A DNA stretch of 64,000 bases from Escherichia coli (GTDB lineage Bacteria > Pseudomonadota > Gammaproteobacteria > Enterobacterales > Enterobacteriaceae): the NCBI RefSeq assembly GCF_003019035.1, contig NZ_CP027447.1; one strand, written 5' to 3'. The notes under the pieces were generated by a model. That model was given only the letters and a program-made list of their open reading frames with translations, made no database searches and was not told the DNA's origin. The position numbers and the translations under genes are program-made. The first letter of the stretch is position 1, and each line of letters opens with the position of its first letter. This document shows positions 35,183 to 45,541 of the stretch, piece after piece.

Positions 35183-38100
35183 TTACCAGCTATATTTCAC
35201 ACCCAGCATGCCCTGAGTATCGCTATAGCCTTTATCACCTAGTTGCACACCGACATTCCCCCACAGGCTAAGGTTGTTATTTACTTTCGCCTCAACCCCG
35301 GTACGTACTTCACCGAGATTACGCGCACCATCACGGCTTACGTTTTGACCATTCATCTTCACGGCGTAGACTTTGCTGTTGTTGATCCAGTTCGCTTCAA
35401 TGTAAGGCTGGAACTCACGCTGTTTACCATTGTCACGCTGGTGATGACTGTTCTGGTAGGTTTTCACCCCAAGTCGTGTTTGCACGTTTCCGTCTCCTTC
35501 CGTTTCAATGCGTGTTCCGTCTTTCCGGGTATGGTCAGAATCTTTCACACCCATCCAGGTGATTTGTACCTGTGGCTGGACGTACCAGGTATTCAGCGTC
35601 CCTTCGCTGCCGCTAAATGTTCCCGCTTCAAAGGTATACCCACCCTCAACAGAGGCCGTCACACCGCGAGAATCATAGTCGTCAGCAGAACGGTTATCGG
35701 AACTGACGCTGTTATCAAACCAGTTATACAGCGCCCAGCTGTCAACATAAGCGCCGGTCTTATTCGCATCGTTCTGATACCAGGTCGCGTACAGTCCTGC
35801 GCTGTAACCGCTGATGCGCCCATCCGATTTATAACCCACATGATTACTCTGAGTATTACTGTGCTGATTGGCATAGCCTGCCATCACGCCGAGATGCCAG
35901 CGATCCTGCGCGTTGCTACTCCACTGCGCCAAATCGCCGCCTAGCTGCAATACATAGCGGTTAGCCTGAGTATTTAGCTGACCATCACCGGTCCTGAAAC
36001 GTTCGTGCCCTCCGACATGACGCATCCATATACTGGTTGCCGAATCCTGAACTCGCAGTGAATCTGTATACTGCGGCTCACCCAGACGGTCGTGTAAGCG
36101 ATGGCTAAACAGCGAGTTGGCTGCGGCAATGTTGCTGATATAGCTTCCGGCCTCCGGGCGATAAACTGATGGGCCTTCCGGATCCACAACAGGGGGATTA
36201 TTGATGGGATCGGGTGTATCCGCTGGCGTTACGCCGTCCCATTTACTGGTCAGATACCAGTTTTTCTCGTCATTCCCCTTCCCTTTAGCCAGCGTGTAGA
36301 CGTAAGCCCCAGCTTCGACAGTTCCGGTGGTCAGCGCGAAGTTACCTGCAGAATTACCGCCAACCTCAATGAGTTCAATACCGTTGACCGTTTGTGCACC
36401 GACGCCGCCAATGTTATTAACCCGAACGCGGGTATTGCCCTGCGTATCACCTTTTACGTTCATTTTATCCGTGGGGGAATTATCGCTACCCAGCGTCGCG
36501 TTGAACGTCATCAGGCCATTGTTTCCGGTATAGTTACCGTTAACGGTCAGTACATTCCCCGGTTTCCCCCCTTCGCTGTTCATTTGAACCGTGCCACCAT
36601 TCTCCAGGTTACCGCCGACAGTGGTTTTAGCGACACGCAGTGTCCCCCCAGGCATAACGTTCACATCACCTGCAGTGGTGACATTTCCCGACATCACACC
36701 GCTGTTATGGATATTAATGTGCTGACTTGCCATATTAATGGCAGAGTCGGAACCGAAAGCAATTTCACCACCCACGATATCCGTCGTACCCTGGTACGCC
36801 GCGGAATCGTTGTTAAGAGTCAGGATCCCGGACCCCAGTTTTGTCACACCGCCGCTACCGGTGATACTGTGCGTCATCGCCCAGCTACGCTCAGTGGAGA
36901 TGGTGAGCAGGCCATTATTGATAACGGAAGCATCACCCAGGTTTTTCTGCTCGTTGACGCTGAGCGCGCTGCCTGTATCAATGTTGAATTGCCCCACAAA
37001 GCGGCTATTATCGCCATCCAGCTCTACGTCTGTCCTGGCGGTTGCGCTCACGATACCCTTCCCGCTTATGCTATTACGCAGTTCGCCGGTCACGTTTTTT
37101 AGCGTTAACAGACCGTCATTGGCAATATTTCCTCTGCCTAACCCCTGCGTATTATCGAGGCTGACTTCCGCATTTGGGCTAACGCTGGTTAACGCATTGT
37201 AGCGTGCATTAAGCCCCTCGATAGCCAGCGTTCCCCCTGTAACATTCAGGTTTCCGCCACCTGTCAGTTCACCCTGACTGATCCCACCTTTATTCACCGT
37301 CAGCGACCCTTCTTTGAACAAAACAGTCGAACCCATCTGCCCGGTGAATGTCTCTACCGTCTGCGTCGATCCATTAAGATCGACGATGGCCGCGTTGCTG
37401 ATGTTCAGTTCCCGGGTGTTGCCCAGCGCGCCATCCGCATCGGTACGTAATGTCCCCATCTGAACGTAGGTTGCCCCCTGATAGTCGTTCTGACCGTTGG
37501 AAAGCGAAACCTGTCGCACCGTATTGATTGCCAGATCCCCTTCACCACCGATTTTTGCCGACATATCGGCCGTTGCGCCATAGGCTCCGCCATGTTCGGC
37601 TAATGTCAGCTTTTGCCCACCATGGATGTTCAGCGCTTTCAGCCCATAGTTAACGTACAAACCATCACCTGGTGCGGTCGTGAGGCGGAATCCATAATCA
37701 CCCTCGGCGACCACCGTTCCGTTTTGCGCAATGTGTAACGTTTTGTCCGCTTCCACCTCGTCGCCCTGTAAATCACGTAACGTTAATGAGCCACCCGACC
37801 CAATAACCGTTTGCGCCTTCACCAGTTGAACGCCGACATGGTTATCATCGTGTTCCAGCAAATTGAGCGTCGTCAGAGGGTTATTCGCCATGGGATCATT
37901 CCACGGTTTAGGCACGTCGATAAGCACGTCGCCCGTCCCGTTTACCTGATAGTTACGGCCTTTCCAGGTGTAGTCACCCGCGCCGACAGCCAGCGTATCG
38001 ACGCTGATATATCCCTCCGCAAGCGTCGCAGCAGGTATATCCGTATCGAAAGTGAGCGTACCGCCATTCATGGCTAGTCCACCAATGGATTGCTCTCCCA

Positions 38101-40603
38101 CGTTTACCGATGTGGTATTTTCACTGTCAGACTGAAGCATCGCGTGAGTAAGCGCAGCGGTGTTGTCGCGTTCCAGTGTGAAGGTACTGTCTTTCAGTTG
38201 GACAACACCGGCGAATTCAGTTCCTGTTGCATGGGTAAAGCCAAACATTTTGTCGGAGGATGACAGCTGCACTCGCATCAAGCCATCGCCTTTGAGCGCA
38301 TTGGTCAGCGTGTAATCTCCTGCGCTGTTCGTTGATGCGAGAATGTCGAGCGTACCGGGGCTTGCAATGGTGACTTCACTCGAACCCATGCCCGTTACCC
38401 CATCTGCCGTATGTGACGCAATGGTCAGGAGGCCGTCATTGACCAGCGTTTTACCGCTATAAGTATTCCCTGCATTGAACACCGTATGGCCTGCATCATG
38501 TATCACTTTTCCGTCTTTATCGTCACCCGTAATCAGCATATCGACCTGGTAGCCGGCATCACTGTTATTGGTATGATTAAAGACAAAAACACCTTCGCCA
38601 GAACCAAACTCTACTTTCGTCGCGTTGGCGATAAACCCGGCATCTGCCGCCGCCTCACCGTGAGCAGCACCAATGTTTAGCGTTCCTACAGCAGGTTCAA
38701 AAAGACCTAAGTAAACTTCGCCACCTTCGACATTCAGCGTGCCGTTATTCGTCAGGGTTAACGTACCCGTACCAGACGTCCCTACATTCATATTGAATGT
38801 TTCAAGAAGAGAGTTCTGCCCATCCACCCGCACGTCGCCCTTACTTTTGTCATTCAGAGCTATCTGTGTATCACGCGCTTTAACTATACCTCCGGTGGTA
38901 ATATTCAGTTCACCCGTACCTAATACACCGACCTGTAGCAATTGGGCGTTAGTAGATGACGTTTTTAAATTCCAGAGACTATCCGTTGAAATATTAACTA
39001 TCCCCTTACCGGAGGCATTTCCTCCGATAAATCCATAGCCCGTTGAATTAAGGGTGGCACCATTACTGACATTTACGATGCCGCTACCAAAATTACCGAC
39101 ATTGATACCTACAGTATCGAACGATGATGTCGCATCCATCAGGTTCAGTGTGCCGATACCGCTTGCTTTATCGCCCAAAAAAGTAATATTTTGCGATACG
39201 AACTTACCGCCATCGCTGATATTGAGGTTTCCGACGCCCGCAACACCAATGGTGGTGTAGACATTCTTATTGACCTCCCATATCCCCCCCGTGGTGATGC
39301 TAACCTTCCCGACGCCGGTTTCTCCATAACCGAGTGAACTTCCTCCGTTGCTGACAACAAGCCCCTCATTACTGATATTCATTTCGCCGTGGCCGTCATA
39401 ACCAAGATTAGTTCCGAGATTAGTGATAACGGAGTTCTTATCCTTAACAGTAATGTTGCCTGTGCCTGTTTCTTTCATCCCCGCAGTGATAATTCCCGAA
39501 TCTACTTTGCCTTCACTAGAGACATTAAGTTCACCGTCGCCAGCATCACCGATATAGATATAGCGGAAAGCTTCGCCCGTTCCGAGGAAATTCCAATGCC
39601 CTTTATCGGTCACGTTGACGACACCGTGGGAACCGTCCTGAACGCCCACCAATGAATATTCTTTGTTATTAATCAGTCCATTATTGGAAATATTGACTTT
39701 GCCATTACCGAAATATCCATTATAGAGTCTGCGTACCGTGATGACAGAGTCTTGATCCTGCACATTCAGGGTTCCGATACCGGTGGCATTGCCTCCGATA
39801 ATCGTATTTTCAGCCGTAATTAGCCCACCCTCGCGAATAGTCGCTTCCCCAGTTCCTTGATTACCAATTTGAAATTCAATTGAGGAATCGTTATTTTTTA
39901 TTAGCCACTCACCGCCCTTTTCAACGACAACCTTACCATTACTGTTCGCTTGATATCCTACAGTGGCGACTATTGAACTCGTGACGTAACCCTTATCCGT
40001 AATATTTAATGAGCCCGTACCGTAACTCCCTATTTCGAATAATTCGGTCGTCAGAACCGAGTCCTCTCCCTCAACATTAACCGTCCCGACGCCTCCTGTC
40101 GAAGAACCTATCCTTAAATATCCTCCGTCAACGTGACCCTTCTGTTTAATATTCAGCGTCCCCGTTCCGGATTGACCCACATTTAAAGGCCTTGCATTAT
40201 TTCCGCTATCATACAATCGCCAGGTCCCACCCAAAACATTAACGGTGCCCTCCGAGTCCTCATTAGCGCCAATGACGCTGGTAGTAATAGTGGTTAAGGA
40301 AGCATTACCGCCAGCCAAAATATTAAGCACTCCAGTGCCATACCAGCCAACCAGGTAGGCATCATAAGCAACATCAGTATCAATATTGGTAATCTGACCA
40401 TTATCAACTTCCAGACTCGCACCAGACGCTGAACCGCTTAGTGCCAGCAAAACACCCAGCGTCAATCTACTGAGTTTCGTTGTCAGTCCAGAGGATTTAC
40501 GCAAATTAACCGTCGATGTTTTACCTACCCTGCGAGTTAATTCAGAGCAGGCCTGAAATACCTGTAGAGTGCAATTCCATATCACGCGATAGATTCTATT
40601 CAT
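35183..40603 (-). CDS. yneO: AIDA-type autotransporter adhesin, intact 1806 aa (yneO/ydeK pseudogene locus in K-12)
   Basis: Extended signal peptide MNRIYRVIWN…; repetitive glycine-rich passenger; C-terminal beta-domain ending …GVKYSW. Confidence 0.85.
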   Translation of the reverse strand: MNRIYRVIWNCTLQVFQACSELTRRVGKTSTVNLRKSSGLTTKLSRLTLGVLLALSGSASGASLEVDNGQITNIDTDVAYDAYLVGWYGTGVLNILAGGNASLTTITTSVIGANEDSEGTVNVLGGTWRLYDSGNNARPLNVGQSGTGTLNIKQKGHVDGGYLRIGSSTGGVGTVNVEGEDSVLTTELFEIGSYGTGSLNITDKGYVTSSIVATVGYQANSNGKVVVEKGGEWLIKNNDSSIEFQIGNQGTGEATIREGGLITAENTIIGGNATGIGTLNVQDQDSVITVRRLYNGYFGNGKVNISNNGLINNKEYSLVGVQDGSHGVVNVTDKGHWNFLGTGEAFRYIYIGDAGDGELNVSSEGKVDSGIITAGMKETGTGNITVKDKNSVITNLGTNLGYDGHGEMNISNEGLVVSNGGSSLGYGETGVGKVSITTGGIWEVNKNVYTTIGVAGVGNLNISDGGKFVSQNITFLGDKASGIGTLNLMDATSSFDTVGINVGNFGSGIVNVSNGATLNSTGYGFIGGNASGKGIVNISTDSLWNLKTSSTNAQLLQVGVLGTGELNITTGGIVKARDTQIALNDKSKGDVRVDGQNSLLETFNMNVGTSGTGTLTLTNNGTLNVEGGEVYLGLFEPAVGTLNIGAAHGEAAADAGFIANATKVEFGSGEGVFVFNHTNNSDAGYQVDMLITGDDKDGKVIHDAGHTVFNAGNTYSGKTLVNDGLLTIASHTADGVTGMGSSEVTIASPGTLDILASTNSAGDYTLTNALKGDGLMRVQLSSSDKMFGFTHATGTEFAGVVQLKDSTFTLERDNTAALTHAMLQSDSENTTSVNVGEQSIGGLAMNGGTLTFDTDIPAATLAEGYISVDTLAVGAGDYTWKGRNYQVNGTGDVLIDVPKPWNDPMANNPLTTLNLLEHDDNHVGVQLVKAQTVIGSGGSLTLRDLQGDEVEADKTLHIAQNGTVVAEGDYGFRLTTAPGDGLYVNYGLKALNIHGGQKLTLAEHGGAYGATADMSAKIGGEGDLAINTVRQVSLSNGQNDYQGATYVQMGTLRTDADGALGNTRELNISNAAIVDLNGSTQTVETFTGQMGSTVLFKEGSLTVNKGGISQGELTGGGNLNVTGGTLAIEGLNARYNALTSVSPNAEVSLDNTQGLGRGNIANDGLLTLKNVTGELRNSISGKGIVSATARTDVELDGDNSRFVGQFNIDTGSALSVNEQKNLGDASVINNGLLTISTERSWAMTHSITGSGGVTKLGSGILTLNNDSAAYQGTTDIVGGEIAFGSDSAINMASQHINIHNSGVMSGNVTTAGDVNVMPGGTLRVAKTTVGGNLENGGTVQMNSEGGKPGNVLTVNGNYTGNNGLMTFNATLGSDNSPTDKMNVKGDTQGNTRVRVNNIGGVGAQTVNGIELIEVGGNSAGNFALTTGTVEAGAYVYTLAKGKGNDEKNWYLTSKWDGVTPADTPDPINNPPVVDPEGPSVYRPEAGSYISNIAAANSLFSHRLHDRLGEPQYTDSLRVQDSATSIWMRHVGGHERFRTGDGQLNTQANRYVLQLGGDLAQWSSNAQDRWHLGVMAGYANQHSNTQSNHVGYKSDGRISGYSAGLYATWYQNDANKTGAYVDSWALYNWFDNSVSSDNRSADDYDSRGVTASVEGGYTFEAGTFSGSEGTLNTWYVQPQVQITWMGVKDSDHTRKDGTRIETEGDGNVQTRLGVKTYQNSHHQRDNGKQREFQPYIEANWINNSKVYAVKMNGQNVSRDGARNLGEVRTGVEAKVNNNLSLWGNVGVQLGDKGYSDTQGMLGVKYSW

Positions 40604-41132
40604 ATAAACGCTCCATATACAAACAATACAGCCACGAAAGAGATGAGTCGCCAGACATTAAAAATGAAACTTATTAAATTGTCAGAGGTCTGTATTGAGT
40701 GTTAGTTGGAGATGGGAAGGTGTCAATTTGGCTAATTTGCTAATGCTTTCGAATTGATAGATTAAAAATTGCATAGTTCTTATTTTATTTAAAAATGAAC
40801 TATGAGTTATTGTTGCTTAATAAGAAAAATGTTTCTTTCAATAAGAAAATTACCATCATCATATTTAACAAAGAATAGCACCAATTGCTAAAAAAGAACT
40901 CTATTAAAACTCTTTTTCATTCATTTATGCTTTTAGGAATATTCGCTATAAAATAAGGGTTATGCTTAATGCTTTAAGAAAAATAGCAATTTCCCCTTGA
41001 ATATAGTACTGGCGATGGAACGATGAATCTGCAAGCTGGCATTTAACAAGCCAGTTCTAAAAGAAGGGAAATAAGAATAACTATACTCAAAAACTAACAG
41101 CCACGGTCATCATGATGTGGCTGTCAATGAAA

Positions 41133-42803: not shown

Positions 42804-43757
42804 TTAACTACGTAAAATCGCCGCTGCTGTATCCTGATCGGTAACCAGTGCGTTGATATAACCGCCTTTCATTGCAGCGGCAATGGCTTCGGCTTTATTT
42901 TCTCCCCCTGCCACGCCAACCCGGACGGGTATGGTCTTCAGCGCGCTTAAAGGTAAGCCAATCAGTTCGTTATGTATTTTAATATCCGTGACAACGTCAC
43001 CTTTTGCATCAAAAAAGTAGCCTAAAATGTCGCCAACCGCCCCTTTTCGACCAATCATTAACTGTTCGCCCTGGCTGATATAGCCGGAGCGAATGATTGT
43101 TGCGTCGTCTTGTTGACTCACAGCCCCAATGCCGACAATCGCTACATCCGCTGCTTGCGCGGCTAGCAGAACATCTTTGACGCAATTTTCATTTTTTAGC
43201 GTACGGGCAATGTCAGCGGAGGATGCCCGCAACGGAGCCGGAATAATATTCACACTGCACGCCGCGTTAAGCTGCCCGATACCCGTCATATAAGAACCGA
43301 CTCCACCGGAGAGCGTGACCAGGCGAATTTGCTGTGACGAAATAAAACCACTTAAGCGTTGCAGCGTATTCATGGTTGCCTCGCCAAAACCAATCGCCAG
43401 CATCTGTTGTGGTTGAAGTAAACTCATCAACATATGCGCCGCGCCTATACCTAGTCGCCCGCCGACATCAGCATCCGCAAGCCCTGGGATCACCCGGACA
43501 TGTTGCAGCGAAAACTGACGACGTAATTGTGTTTCATATTCCAGACAGCCTTCAAAGCGAGAATTAATCTGTACGCGAATAATGCCGGATTGATGCCCTT
43601 TCTCCAGTAATCGCGACACTTTCAAACGGGTCAGGCCGAGACGATCGCTGATCTCACTCTGGGTCAGCCCGTCGTGGTAGTAAAACCACGCAATCCGCGC
43701 GACCTGTTCTTCTTCACACATTCCCTGTTCTGAAATTACCGAATCGTTGATTGTCAT
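42804..43757 (-). CDS. lsrR: lsr operon repressor
   Basis: 317-aa ORF matching LsrR. Confidence 0.93.
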
Positions 43758-43773
43758 AATTCATTCTTCACTT

Positions 43774-43974
43774 TGAACATACTTAAATCTTTAATGCAAT
43801 TGTTCAGTTCTTGCGCATTTATATCTGTGATGGCAACCACAGTTTGACTCTATGAGCATGAACAAACGCAACCGTGAAAATCAAAATAGCATAAATTGTG
43901 ATCTATTCGTCGGAAATATGTGCAATGTCCACCTAAGGTTATGAACAAATTAAAAACAGAAATACATTTGTTCA
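43774..43974. promoter_or_regulatory. Divergent lsrR/lsrA promoter region with two TGAACA…TGTTCA inverted repeats (candidate LsrR operators) and a CRP-like site
   Basis: TGAACA (43774-43779) / TGTTCA (43801-43806); TGAACAAAT (43942-43950) / ATTTGTTCA (43966-43974); TGTGATGGCAACCACAG between them. Confidence 0.55.
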
Positions 43975-44005
43975 AAACTCACCTGCAAAACTGAACGGGG
44001 GAAAT

Positions 44006-45541
44006 ATGCAAACGAGTGATACCCGCGCGTTACCGCTACTTTGCGCCCGCTCGGTTTATAAACAGTATTCAGGAGTTAATGTCCTGAAAGGCATCGATTT
44101 TACGTTGCATCAGGGGGAGGTCCACGCCCTGCTCGGCGGCAATGGTGCCGGTAAATCGACGTTAATGAAGATTATTGCCGGTATTACCCCTGCTGATAGC
44201 GGTACGCTGGAGATTGGGGGCAACAACTACGTCAGATTAACGCCAGTTCATGCTCATCAGCTGGGCATTTATCTCGTTCCCCAGGAACCGCTGCTTTTTC
44301 CAAGCCTGTCGATAAAAGAAAACATCCTGTTTGGTCTGGCAAAAAAACAGCTCTCCATACAGAAAATGAATAACTTGCTGGCGGCGCTGGGCTGCCAGTT
44401 TGATCTGCATAGTCTGGCAGGATCGCTGGATGTCGCCGATCGCCAAATGGTGGAAATCCTCCGCGGGCTGATGCGCGATTCGCGAATTCTGATCCTCGAT
44501 GAACCTACCGCCTCGCTTACTCCCGCCGAAACCGAACGTTTGTTTATTCGCTTGCGGGAGCTGCTTGCTACTGGCGTGGGTATTGTTTTTATCTCGCATA
44601 AGCTGCCGGAAATTCGCCAGATTGCCGACCGAATTAGCGTGATGCGCGACGGAACCATCGCCTTAAGCGGCAAAACCAGCGAACTGTCTACCGACGACAT
44701 TATTCAGGCCATTACGCCAGCGCTACGGGAAAAATCGCTCTCTGCCAGCCAAAAATTATGGCTGGAATTACCTGGCAACCGCCCACAACATGCCGCGGGA
44801 ACGCCGGTGCTGACACTGGAAAATCTGACCGGCGAAGGTTTCAGGAATGTCAGCCTGACGCTCAATGCCGGAGAAATTCTGGGCCTGGCTGGGCTGGTGG
44901 GAGCCGGACGCACAGAACTGGCCGAGACGCTCTATGGTCTGCGTACTTTGCGTGGCGGACGCATTATGCTGAATGGTAAAGAGATCAATAGATTATCCAC
45001 CGGAGAACGTTTACTGCGCGGTCTGGTTTATCTGCCGGAAGATCGCCAGTCATCCGGACTTAATCTCGATGCTTCACTGGCGTGGAACGTCTGCGCCCTT
45101 ACTCATAACCTTCGTGGATTCTGGGCGAAAACCGCGAAAGATAATGCCACCCTGGAACGATATCGTCGGGCGCTGAATATTAAATTTAACCAACCGGAAC
45201 AAGCTGCGCGGACCTTATCCGGCGGCAACCAGCAAAAAATCCTGATTGCCAAATGCCTGGAAGCCTCGCCGCAAGTATTGATTGTCGATGAGCCGACGCG
45301 CGGCGTGGATGTCTCGGCGCGTAATGATATCTACCAACTGTTGCGCAGCATCGCCGCACAGAATGTGGCTGTGCTGCTTATCTCCTCTGATCTCGAAGAG
45401 ATCGAACTGATGGCAGATCGCGTGTATGTGATGCATCAGGGCGAAATTGCCCACTCTGCACTGACCGGGCGCGATATTAATGTCGAGACCATTATGCGCG
45501 TTGCCTTCGGCGATAGTCAGCGTCAGGAGGCGTCATGCTGA
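44006..45541 (+). CDS. lsrA: AI-2 ABC transporter ATPase (two ABC domains)
   Basis: 511-aa ORF with Walker [10 protein letters not shown]. Confidence 0.93.

Follow-up and report, generated by a model that had tools for sequence, protein, structure and literature searches.

Our results support a model in which each of the two 33-bp inverted repeats between the divergent lsrR and lsrA genes of Escherichia coli constitutes an entire operator, filled by a single tetramer of the repressor LsrR, so that both promoters, themselves activated by CRP, would be blocked by the bound protein. We place the probability of this reading at roughly 85%. The initial annotation of this DNA had noted two symmetric TGAACA...TGTTCA repeats, one near each divergent start, and had read them as the means by which LsrR represses both transcription units. 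Both repeats are present as exact matches to TGAACA-N21-TGTTCA, and the proposed repression of both units fits what we found: the repeat on the lsrR side (box R) matches the published binding box, and comparative evidence argues for the repeat on the lsrA side (box A). Repression of both units by LsrR and activation by CRP have been known since 2005–2009, and the repeats are almost certainly the LsrR binding sites of this known lsr control region, which makes them already largely known. What we add are refinements, namely a palindromic, DeoR-like operator, the recognition that the published lsrA-side motifs are not the conserved element, the location of the CRP site CRPI, and a decayed third box in fixed helical phase with the others. 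In the literature that we searched, we found no palindromic LsrR operator, no RegPrecise motif and no lsr start sites.

The window analyzed here is a 64,000-nucleotide stretch of E. coli DNA, in which the divergent lsrR–lsrA intergenic region occupies positions 43758–44005 (248 bp). The genes bordering this region are true lsrR and lsrA. Five open reading frames around it match the NCBIfam equivalogs LsrK, LsrR, LsrA, LsrC and LsrD, all above the curated cut-offs (for LsrR, NF011947, 619.9 bits against a cut-off of 486; for LsrA, NF011967, 954 bits against 586), and RefSeq gives the same genes the labels lsrK-lsrR and lsrACDBFG in E. coli SCU-301, in which the stretch is 100% identical. In that identical RefSeq record, a large gene for an "ECSE_1600 family autotransporter" lies downstream of lsrK, at about 38000–41100. 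The MG1655 intergenic region is numbered from −248 to −1 in the K-12 literature and thus has the same length as the region here, so that coordinates from K-12 papers transfer directly. The region is present in 4203 of 5426 complete E. coli genomes; the remaining 1223 are without it, and 14 match at only 80–90% identity. There is also a second "E. coli" LsrR (P0020; 332 aa), only 78% identical and found on 379 contigs. Together, the genomes without the region and the divergent second LsrR indicate that E. coli carries at least two divergent lsr alleles, plus strains that have no lsr locus.

Table 1. Genes, proposed operators, CRP sites and predicted promoter elements of the lsrR–lsrA region, in window coordinates.
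Feature	Position	Strand	Basis
lsrR CDS (SorC/DeoR-subfamily repressor of the lsr regulon)	42804–43757	−	ORF, NCBIfam and RefSeq
Box R, TGAACA-N21-TGTTCA; putative operator of the lsrR promoter, filled by a single LsrR tetramer	43774–43806		Exact match, published box, conservation
Predicted lsrR −10 hexamer AACAAT, overlapping the box R right arm	43799–43804	−	Inferred from the hexamer and its distance to CRPII
CRPII, TGTGATGGCAACCACA	43826–43841		One mismatch to TGTGA-N6-TCACA; labelled CRPII in Hauk 2016
Box M remnant, TGAACA-N21-ATAGCA, left arm only	43859–43891		Begins 83 bp upstream of box A
CRPI, TGTGATCTATTCGTCG, second CRP site, strong left half only	43897–43912		7 bp upstream of TGTGCAAT; conservation
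Predicted lsrA −10 hexamer TAAGGT	43934–43939	+	Conserved cTAnnnTT 2 nt upstream of box A (36 unique regions)
Box A, TGAACA-N21-TGTTCA (extended arms 43938–43978), proposed full operator for one LsrR tetramer	43942–43974		Exact match and conservation
Published "p-lsrA-box" motifs AAAACT and AAAACTGAA, directly downstream of box A	43974–43995	+	Quoted from Xue 2009
lsrA CDS, first gene of lsrACDBFG	44006–45541	+	ORF, NCBIfam and RefSeq

The two repeats are the only exact matches to TGAACA-N21-TGTTCA in the window, and 100 dinucleotide-preserving shuffles yielded none. When up to two mismatches were allowed, the window held four further matches, none of them in the intergenic region, against 3.2 expected. 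The TGAACA hexamer itself is concentrated between the two genes, where it occurs five times on the two strands, although its frequency across the window would predict 0.18 occurrences (Poisson P = 1.4e-6). As direct copies, the 33-mers of box R and box A are 73% identical and lie 168 bp apart, with box R beginning 17 bp from the lsrR ATG (43757, minus strand) and box A stopping 32 bp short of the lsrA ATG (44006). The arms of box A extend further, to 13 nt on each side (43938–43950 and 43966–43978), with 92% complementarity.

The lsrR-side repeat is backed directly by experiment, since it coincides with the published LsrR box and mutational data. In Hauk 2016, the "p-lsrR box" runs from −237 to −197 relative to the lsrA ATG. 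This interval, 43769–43809 in the window, contains all of box R and extends 5 and 3 nt beyond its ends. Two motifs on this side, AACAAT and AAGATTTAA, are reported as essential for LsrR binding (Xue et al. 2009, Cell Res 19:1258, as quoted in PMC5137460 and PMC8487509), and both lie within box R on the minus strand, at 43804–43799 and 43791–43783, respectively. In the error-prone PCR selection of Hauk 2016, 12 of 14 derepressed clones owed their phenotype to changes in TAATGCA at −214 to −208. This hot spot corresponds to 43792–43798, again within box R, where it forms a predicted inner half-site. Compared with the published LsrR data, therefore, the initial annotation fares well on the lsrR side: its repeat falls inside the published box and contains both the essential motifs and the derepression hot spot.

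The box pattern is widely conserved. A profile built from 15 LsrR orthologues retrieved 80 Enterobacterales loci, 66 of which had a divergent lsrA within reach. The box A pattern is exact in 61 of these 66 loci and carries one or two mismatches in the others, always with an N21 spacing. For measurements of identity to the window, we used 65 unique sequences, with Salmonella (L081) added and Escherichia excluded. The sequence around box A is not similarly conserved, as its flanks are 23–55% identical in comparison with 99–100% for the arms. A MAFFT alignment of the 36 unique regions that share the E. coli-like layout has few columns conserved at 90% or more, and these comprise TGAACA and CAATTGTTC of box R, CTGTGA...CA of CRPII, GTGATC of CRPI, the cTAnnnTT element, and TGAACA...CATTTGTTCA of box A; CAATTG is conserved at the same level. 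Beyond the Enterobacterales, an lsrR-lsrK/ABC-transporter locus of the Bacillus cereus group, whose LsrR is 40% identical, has AGAACA-N21-TGTTCT beside lsrA, and a Pasteurellaceae-type contig has TGAACA-N22-TGTTAA. We found no TGAACA box in the intergenic region (2285–2500) of a metagenome contig (L084) that encodes an LsrR-like protein 45% identical to LsrR (P0125), and thus not every LsrR-like protein is accompanied by the motif. The lsrR-lsrK locus on that contig faces a DeoC/LsrF-like gene and has several TGATCA-containing repeats instead, suggesting that half-site preference has shifted in this distant branch of LsrR. A short, GC-rich contig with another distant orthologue (P0127; L085) had neither lsr context nor the motif.

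Comparison among loci also revealed the remnant of a third box (box M) at 43859–43891, which is absent from the initial annotation. Only its left arm is intact in the window, and the same position holds a box with 0–2 mismatches in Salmonella, Kluyvera, Superficieibacter, Serratia H1w and Entomohabitans. Salmonella has three boxes spaced 83 bp apart, with 0, 1 and 0 mismatches, and Yersinia, Photorhabdus, Xenorhabdus, Morganella and Prodigiosinella have box M and box A only. Box A is accompanied by box R, box M or both in 69 of 69 Enterobacterales loci from more than 20 genera, distributed among the layouts R+A (27 loci), M+A (33 loci) and R+M+A (9 loci). Over these 69 loci, the distance from box to box is only ever 83–85 or 166–168 bp. 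Within the boxes themselves, almost every locus keeps 21 bp, and N20 or N22 is limited to a few cases of box M or of Pasteurellaceae. Because 84 and 168 bp correspond to 8 and 16 turns of B-DNA, this fixed phasing suggests cooperation, along a single face of the helix, between tetramers bound to different boxes.

The CRP-like TGTGA-N6-CCACA element that had been placed between the repeats is also present and conserved, and it is the site that the literature calls CRPII. Sites within two mismatches of TGTGA-N6-TCACA number 26 in the window against 28.9 expected, so that the CRPII match taken alone is at background level. It is therefore the conservation at 90% or more of CTGTGA in CRPII and of GTGATC in CRPI, rather than the match to the consensus, that supports these two sites. 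CRPI, at 43897–43912, is a second CRP site that the initial annotation did not include. The order shown in Fig. 2 of Hauk 2016 is p-lsrR box, CRPII, CRPI and p-lsrA box, with TGTGCAAT described as "very close to CRPI", and TGTGCAAT is located at 43919–43926 in the window. When CRPI was compared by hand with the 22-bp CRP consensus, its left 11-mer agreed at 10 of 11 positions and its right 11-mer at 2 of 11.

A scan with the consensus promoter found no sigma-70 site in the region, a result that we read as pointing to weak, CRP-dependent promoters rather than to the absence of promoters. Published work reports that lsr expression requires crp and is higher in an lsrR deletion. Two conserved −10-like hexamers, TAAGGT for lsrA and AACAAT for lsrR, are the basis for placing the starts, the CRP sites and the operators relative to one another. 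The first base of TAAGGT is 29.5 bp from the centre of CRPI. AACAAT, whose second and sixth bases are A and T, likewise has its first base 29.5 bp from the centre of CRPII (43833.5). The predicted lsrA start would then lie at about 43946, within the left arm of box A, with CRPI at −41.5 and box A spanning approximately −4 to +29. The predicted lsrR start would lie at about 43792, with CRPII at −41.5, the geometry of class II promoters, and box R spanning approximately −14 to +19. Two promoter-up mutations, TGTGCAAT to TGTACAAT and TGTGCAAT to TGTGTAAT, are ascribed by Hauk 2016 to a putative CytR site. Both change TGCAAT, which matches TATAAT at 4/6 positions, to a hexamer that matches at 5/6, namely TACAAT or TGTAAT. 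A stronger −10 hexamer created in this way, 13 bp ahead of the conserved TAAGGT, is a simpler explanation for them than a CytR site.

Several smaller features lie close to the lsrA start codon. An exact 9-nt direct repeat, GGAAATATG, occurs at 43912–43920 and at 44000–44008; the second copy constitutes the lsrA Shine-Dalgarno region and start codon, and the first would open an 8-codon reading frame (ATGTGCAATGTCCACCTAAGGTTATGA) upstream of the predicted lsrA start. The repeat and reading frame are unconserved in other genera and are probably due to chance. A lone TGAACG at 43992–43997 lies 17 nt past box A, within AAAACTGAA as published; it may be a stray half-site or simply belong to the ribosome-binding-site context. 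Beside the lsrA ribosome-binding site, (T)GAACGGAGG is semi-conserved in Enterobacteriaceae.

The identity of the operator on the lsrA side is where a competing account has to be weighed. The group that performed the footprinting named AAAACT and AAAACTGAA as motifs of the "p-lsrA-box" that are needed for binding (Xue 2009, as quoted in PMC8487509). On that account, only box R would be an LsrR operator, LsrR on the lsrA side would bind AAAACT-N7-AAAACTGAA, and the box A palindrome would serve some other role, either as an AT-rich promoter or initial-transcribed element or as the site of another protein. In the window, AAAACT maps to 43974–43979 and AAAACTGAA to 43987–43995, so that their overlap with box A amounts to a single base. 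Among the 65 unique non-Escherichia sequences, AAAACT is 34% and AAAACTGAA 23% identical to the window, values at the chance level for AT-rich DNA, whereas box A shows 100% and 99% identity in its arms and 51% in its spacer. The positions of the published motifs vary even within Escherichia; across three Escherichia loci and the window, changes in box A are confined to the centre of the spacer. Box A, moreover, shares its arms and spacing with the experimentally supported box R, and a repeat of its type recurs beside lsrA in Bacillus cereus. The published lsrA motifs are A-rich and low in information, and those put forward later in this line of work are just as loose. The comparative evidence strongly favours box A as the lsrA-side element, although the published experimental record points next door to it; judged by conservation across genera, the published motifs are not the conserved element. 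We consider it improbable that LsrR uses them in place of box A.

Two other accounts concern how the repeats act. If transcribed, they could form RNA hairpins in the lsrA and lsrR leaders, with effects on stability, attenuation or translation, and box A does fold as a 9–12-bp stem of −7 kcal/mol with a z-score of −2.6 relative to shuffles. That stem, however, is AU-rich and closes a 15-nt loop, the z-score is only −1.2 for box R and −0.4 for the predicted leader from 43944, the free energies are just −6 to −7 kcal/mol, and no Rfam family was matched. The arms do not covary, since it is their sequence that is invariant and not just their ability to pair. In addition, the predicted lsrA start lies within the left arm of box A, and the motif is a solved protein-binding site in DeoR. 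We dropped the hairpin reading for its weak structure and its lack of an Rfam match, and we give it hardly any credence. The other account accepts LsrR as the ligand but has a single tetramer bridge one half of box R and one half of box A in a 168-bp repression loop. This would fit the restriction of spacing to 83–85 and 166–168 bp, whole helical turns, across wide divergence, as well as the finding of Hauk 2016 that box R mutations derepress a reporter in the lsrA direction about 150 bp away. Nonetheless, the invariant N21 within the boxes and their match to the two-half DeoR operator argue that one tetramer fills one box, cooperation between tetramers accounts equally well for the phasing, and constraints of promoter geometry account for part of the fixed spacing. 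Given the invariant N21, a bridging tetramer is less likely than one tetramer per box, and we regard it as highly improbable.

In the model that we favour, which draws on B. subtilis DeoR and has one tetramer on each box, LsrR would act as a dimer of dimers, and a pair of its N-terminal helix-turn-helix domains would fill each half of a box. One domain of the pair would read the invariant outer arm (TGAACA or TGTTCA), and its partner would read a weaker inner site, roughly 11 bp closer to the centre of the box (..CA, 4 nt, TTCA on the right half). Under this arrangement, the sensitive pieces of box R would be assigned as follows: AACAAT to the outer site, TGCATTA (the hot spot) to the inner site of the same half, and AAGATTTAA to the inner site of the other half. 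Box R would overlap the predicted lsrR −10 element and start, and box A would cover the predicted lsrA start; from these positions, bound LsrR would exclude or stall RNA polymerase at both divergent promoters. cAMP-CRP would activate each promoter from its predicted −41.5 position, from CRPII in the case of lsrR and from CRPI in the case of lsrA. Phospho-AI-2, which is made by LsrK, is known to bind LsrR, split the tetramer and free both operators; the literature describes LsrR binding and its release by phospho-AI-2 for the entire region.

A broader version of the model is possible, although we hold it only tentatively. In this version, the operator at lsrA would have been wrongly defined, the true site being a 33-bp DeoR-like palindrome over the lsrA start, and the locus would descend from two or three ancestral operators locked 8 and 16 helical turns apart, on which tetramers would silence both promoters, either by cooperation or by looping of the DNA. 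Operators phased in this way, with cooperation between tetramers or looping, would explain how mutations in box R could derepress lsrA from 150 bp away.

As a discovery about the genome, these results add little; they describe no new kind of element, and their interest is moderate and mainly for specialists. They do have practical implications. The lsr promoter is widely used in synthetic biology as an AI-2-responsive switch, and claims that LsrR is a global regulator, built on very loose A/T-rich "motifs", are becoming more frequent. A sharp definition of the operator that has phylogenetic support, in the form of TGAACA-N21-TGTTCA with DeoR-like half-sites and fixed phasing, would offer a specific test of the extra targets that have been claimed, among them cysP, cysN, ahpCF, katG and phoP. 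It would also steer promoter engineering and tie LsrR to a solved DeoR–DNA structure.

The protein itself supports this connection. The crystal structures of LsrR itself, 4L5I and 4GO1, are matched with E = 2e-202, and in 4GO1 the protein is a tetramer; the B. subtilis DeoR–DNA complex 8R7Y is matched with E = 2.9e-28. LsrR carries the homeodomain-like HTH of the SorC/DeoR subfamily: over its 65 N-terminal aa it matches 7BHY, the DNA-binding domain of DeoR (E = 3e-4), and SorC (2W48), and its recognition helix aligns with SRPTVSRLLQ of DeoR, with VSRLL identical. Two arginines of LsrR, R44 and R49, take the places of DeoR R34 and R39, and neither varies among the 15 LsrR orthologues. We know of no structure of LsrR on DNA. 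In Salmonella LsrR, the R43A substitution is reported to weaken binding to the lsr promoter, and R43 of that protein corresponds to R44 in E. coli. The DeoR operator of dra-nupC-pdp is 39 bp long, ATTGAACAAAATTTCAATTACCAATTTACATATGTTCAA, and has the form TGAACA-N24-TGTTCA (PDB 8R7Y, 7BHY; PMC11229326). The DeoR tetramer places one DNA-binding dimer on each half of the operator and binds neither half alone, and R34 and R39 contact bases of TTGAACA (PMC11229326).

Compared with known systems, the arrangement described here is closest to the published E. coli LsrR boxes, with which it shares the locus, the repressor and a logic of two boxes with CRPI and CRPII between them; it differs in that the published boxes, in Xue 2009 as quoted in PMC5137460 and PMC8487509, are short A/T-rich motifs (6 bp and 9 bp) and not a 33-bp palindrome. 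Divergent class II CRP promoters of sugar-utilisation genes similarly have two CRP sites between the genes, predicted here to lie at −41.5, together with weak −35 elements, dependence on crp and operators over the starts, but in the lsr region the −41.5 positions are predicted from −10-like hexamers, and CRPI has one good half-site. With respect to DeoR, the two proteins have in common the SorC/DeoR subfamily, the outer arms TGAACA...TGTTCA, base-contacting arginines and a tetrameric state. The right halves are also similar, AAATACATTTGTTCAA in box A and ATTTACATATGTTCAA in the DeoR operator, with AAATA-CATTTG-TTCAA of box A close to ATTTA-CATATG-TTCAA of DeoR. In global alignments to the DeoR operator, the two boxes score 37 and 43 compared with 23.5 ± 3.5 for shuffles of box A, with a gap of 3 bp. 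The outer hexamers are 24 bp apart in the DeoR operator and 21 bp apart in the lsr boxes, which makes the latter a spacing variant rather than the same operator, and the DNA-binding dimers of LsrR would sit about 19 bp apart in contrast to about 22 bp for DeoR. The effectors also differ, being deoxyribose-5-phosphate for DeoR and phospho-AI-2 for LsrR. Finally, DeoR acts from a single operator at −60 to −21, whereas the lsr region carries two or three operators in phase with one another, its boxes being located over the predicted transcription starts.
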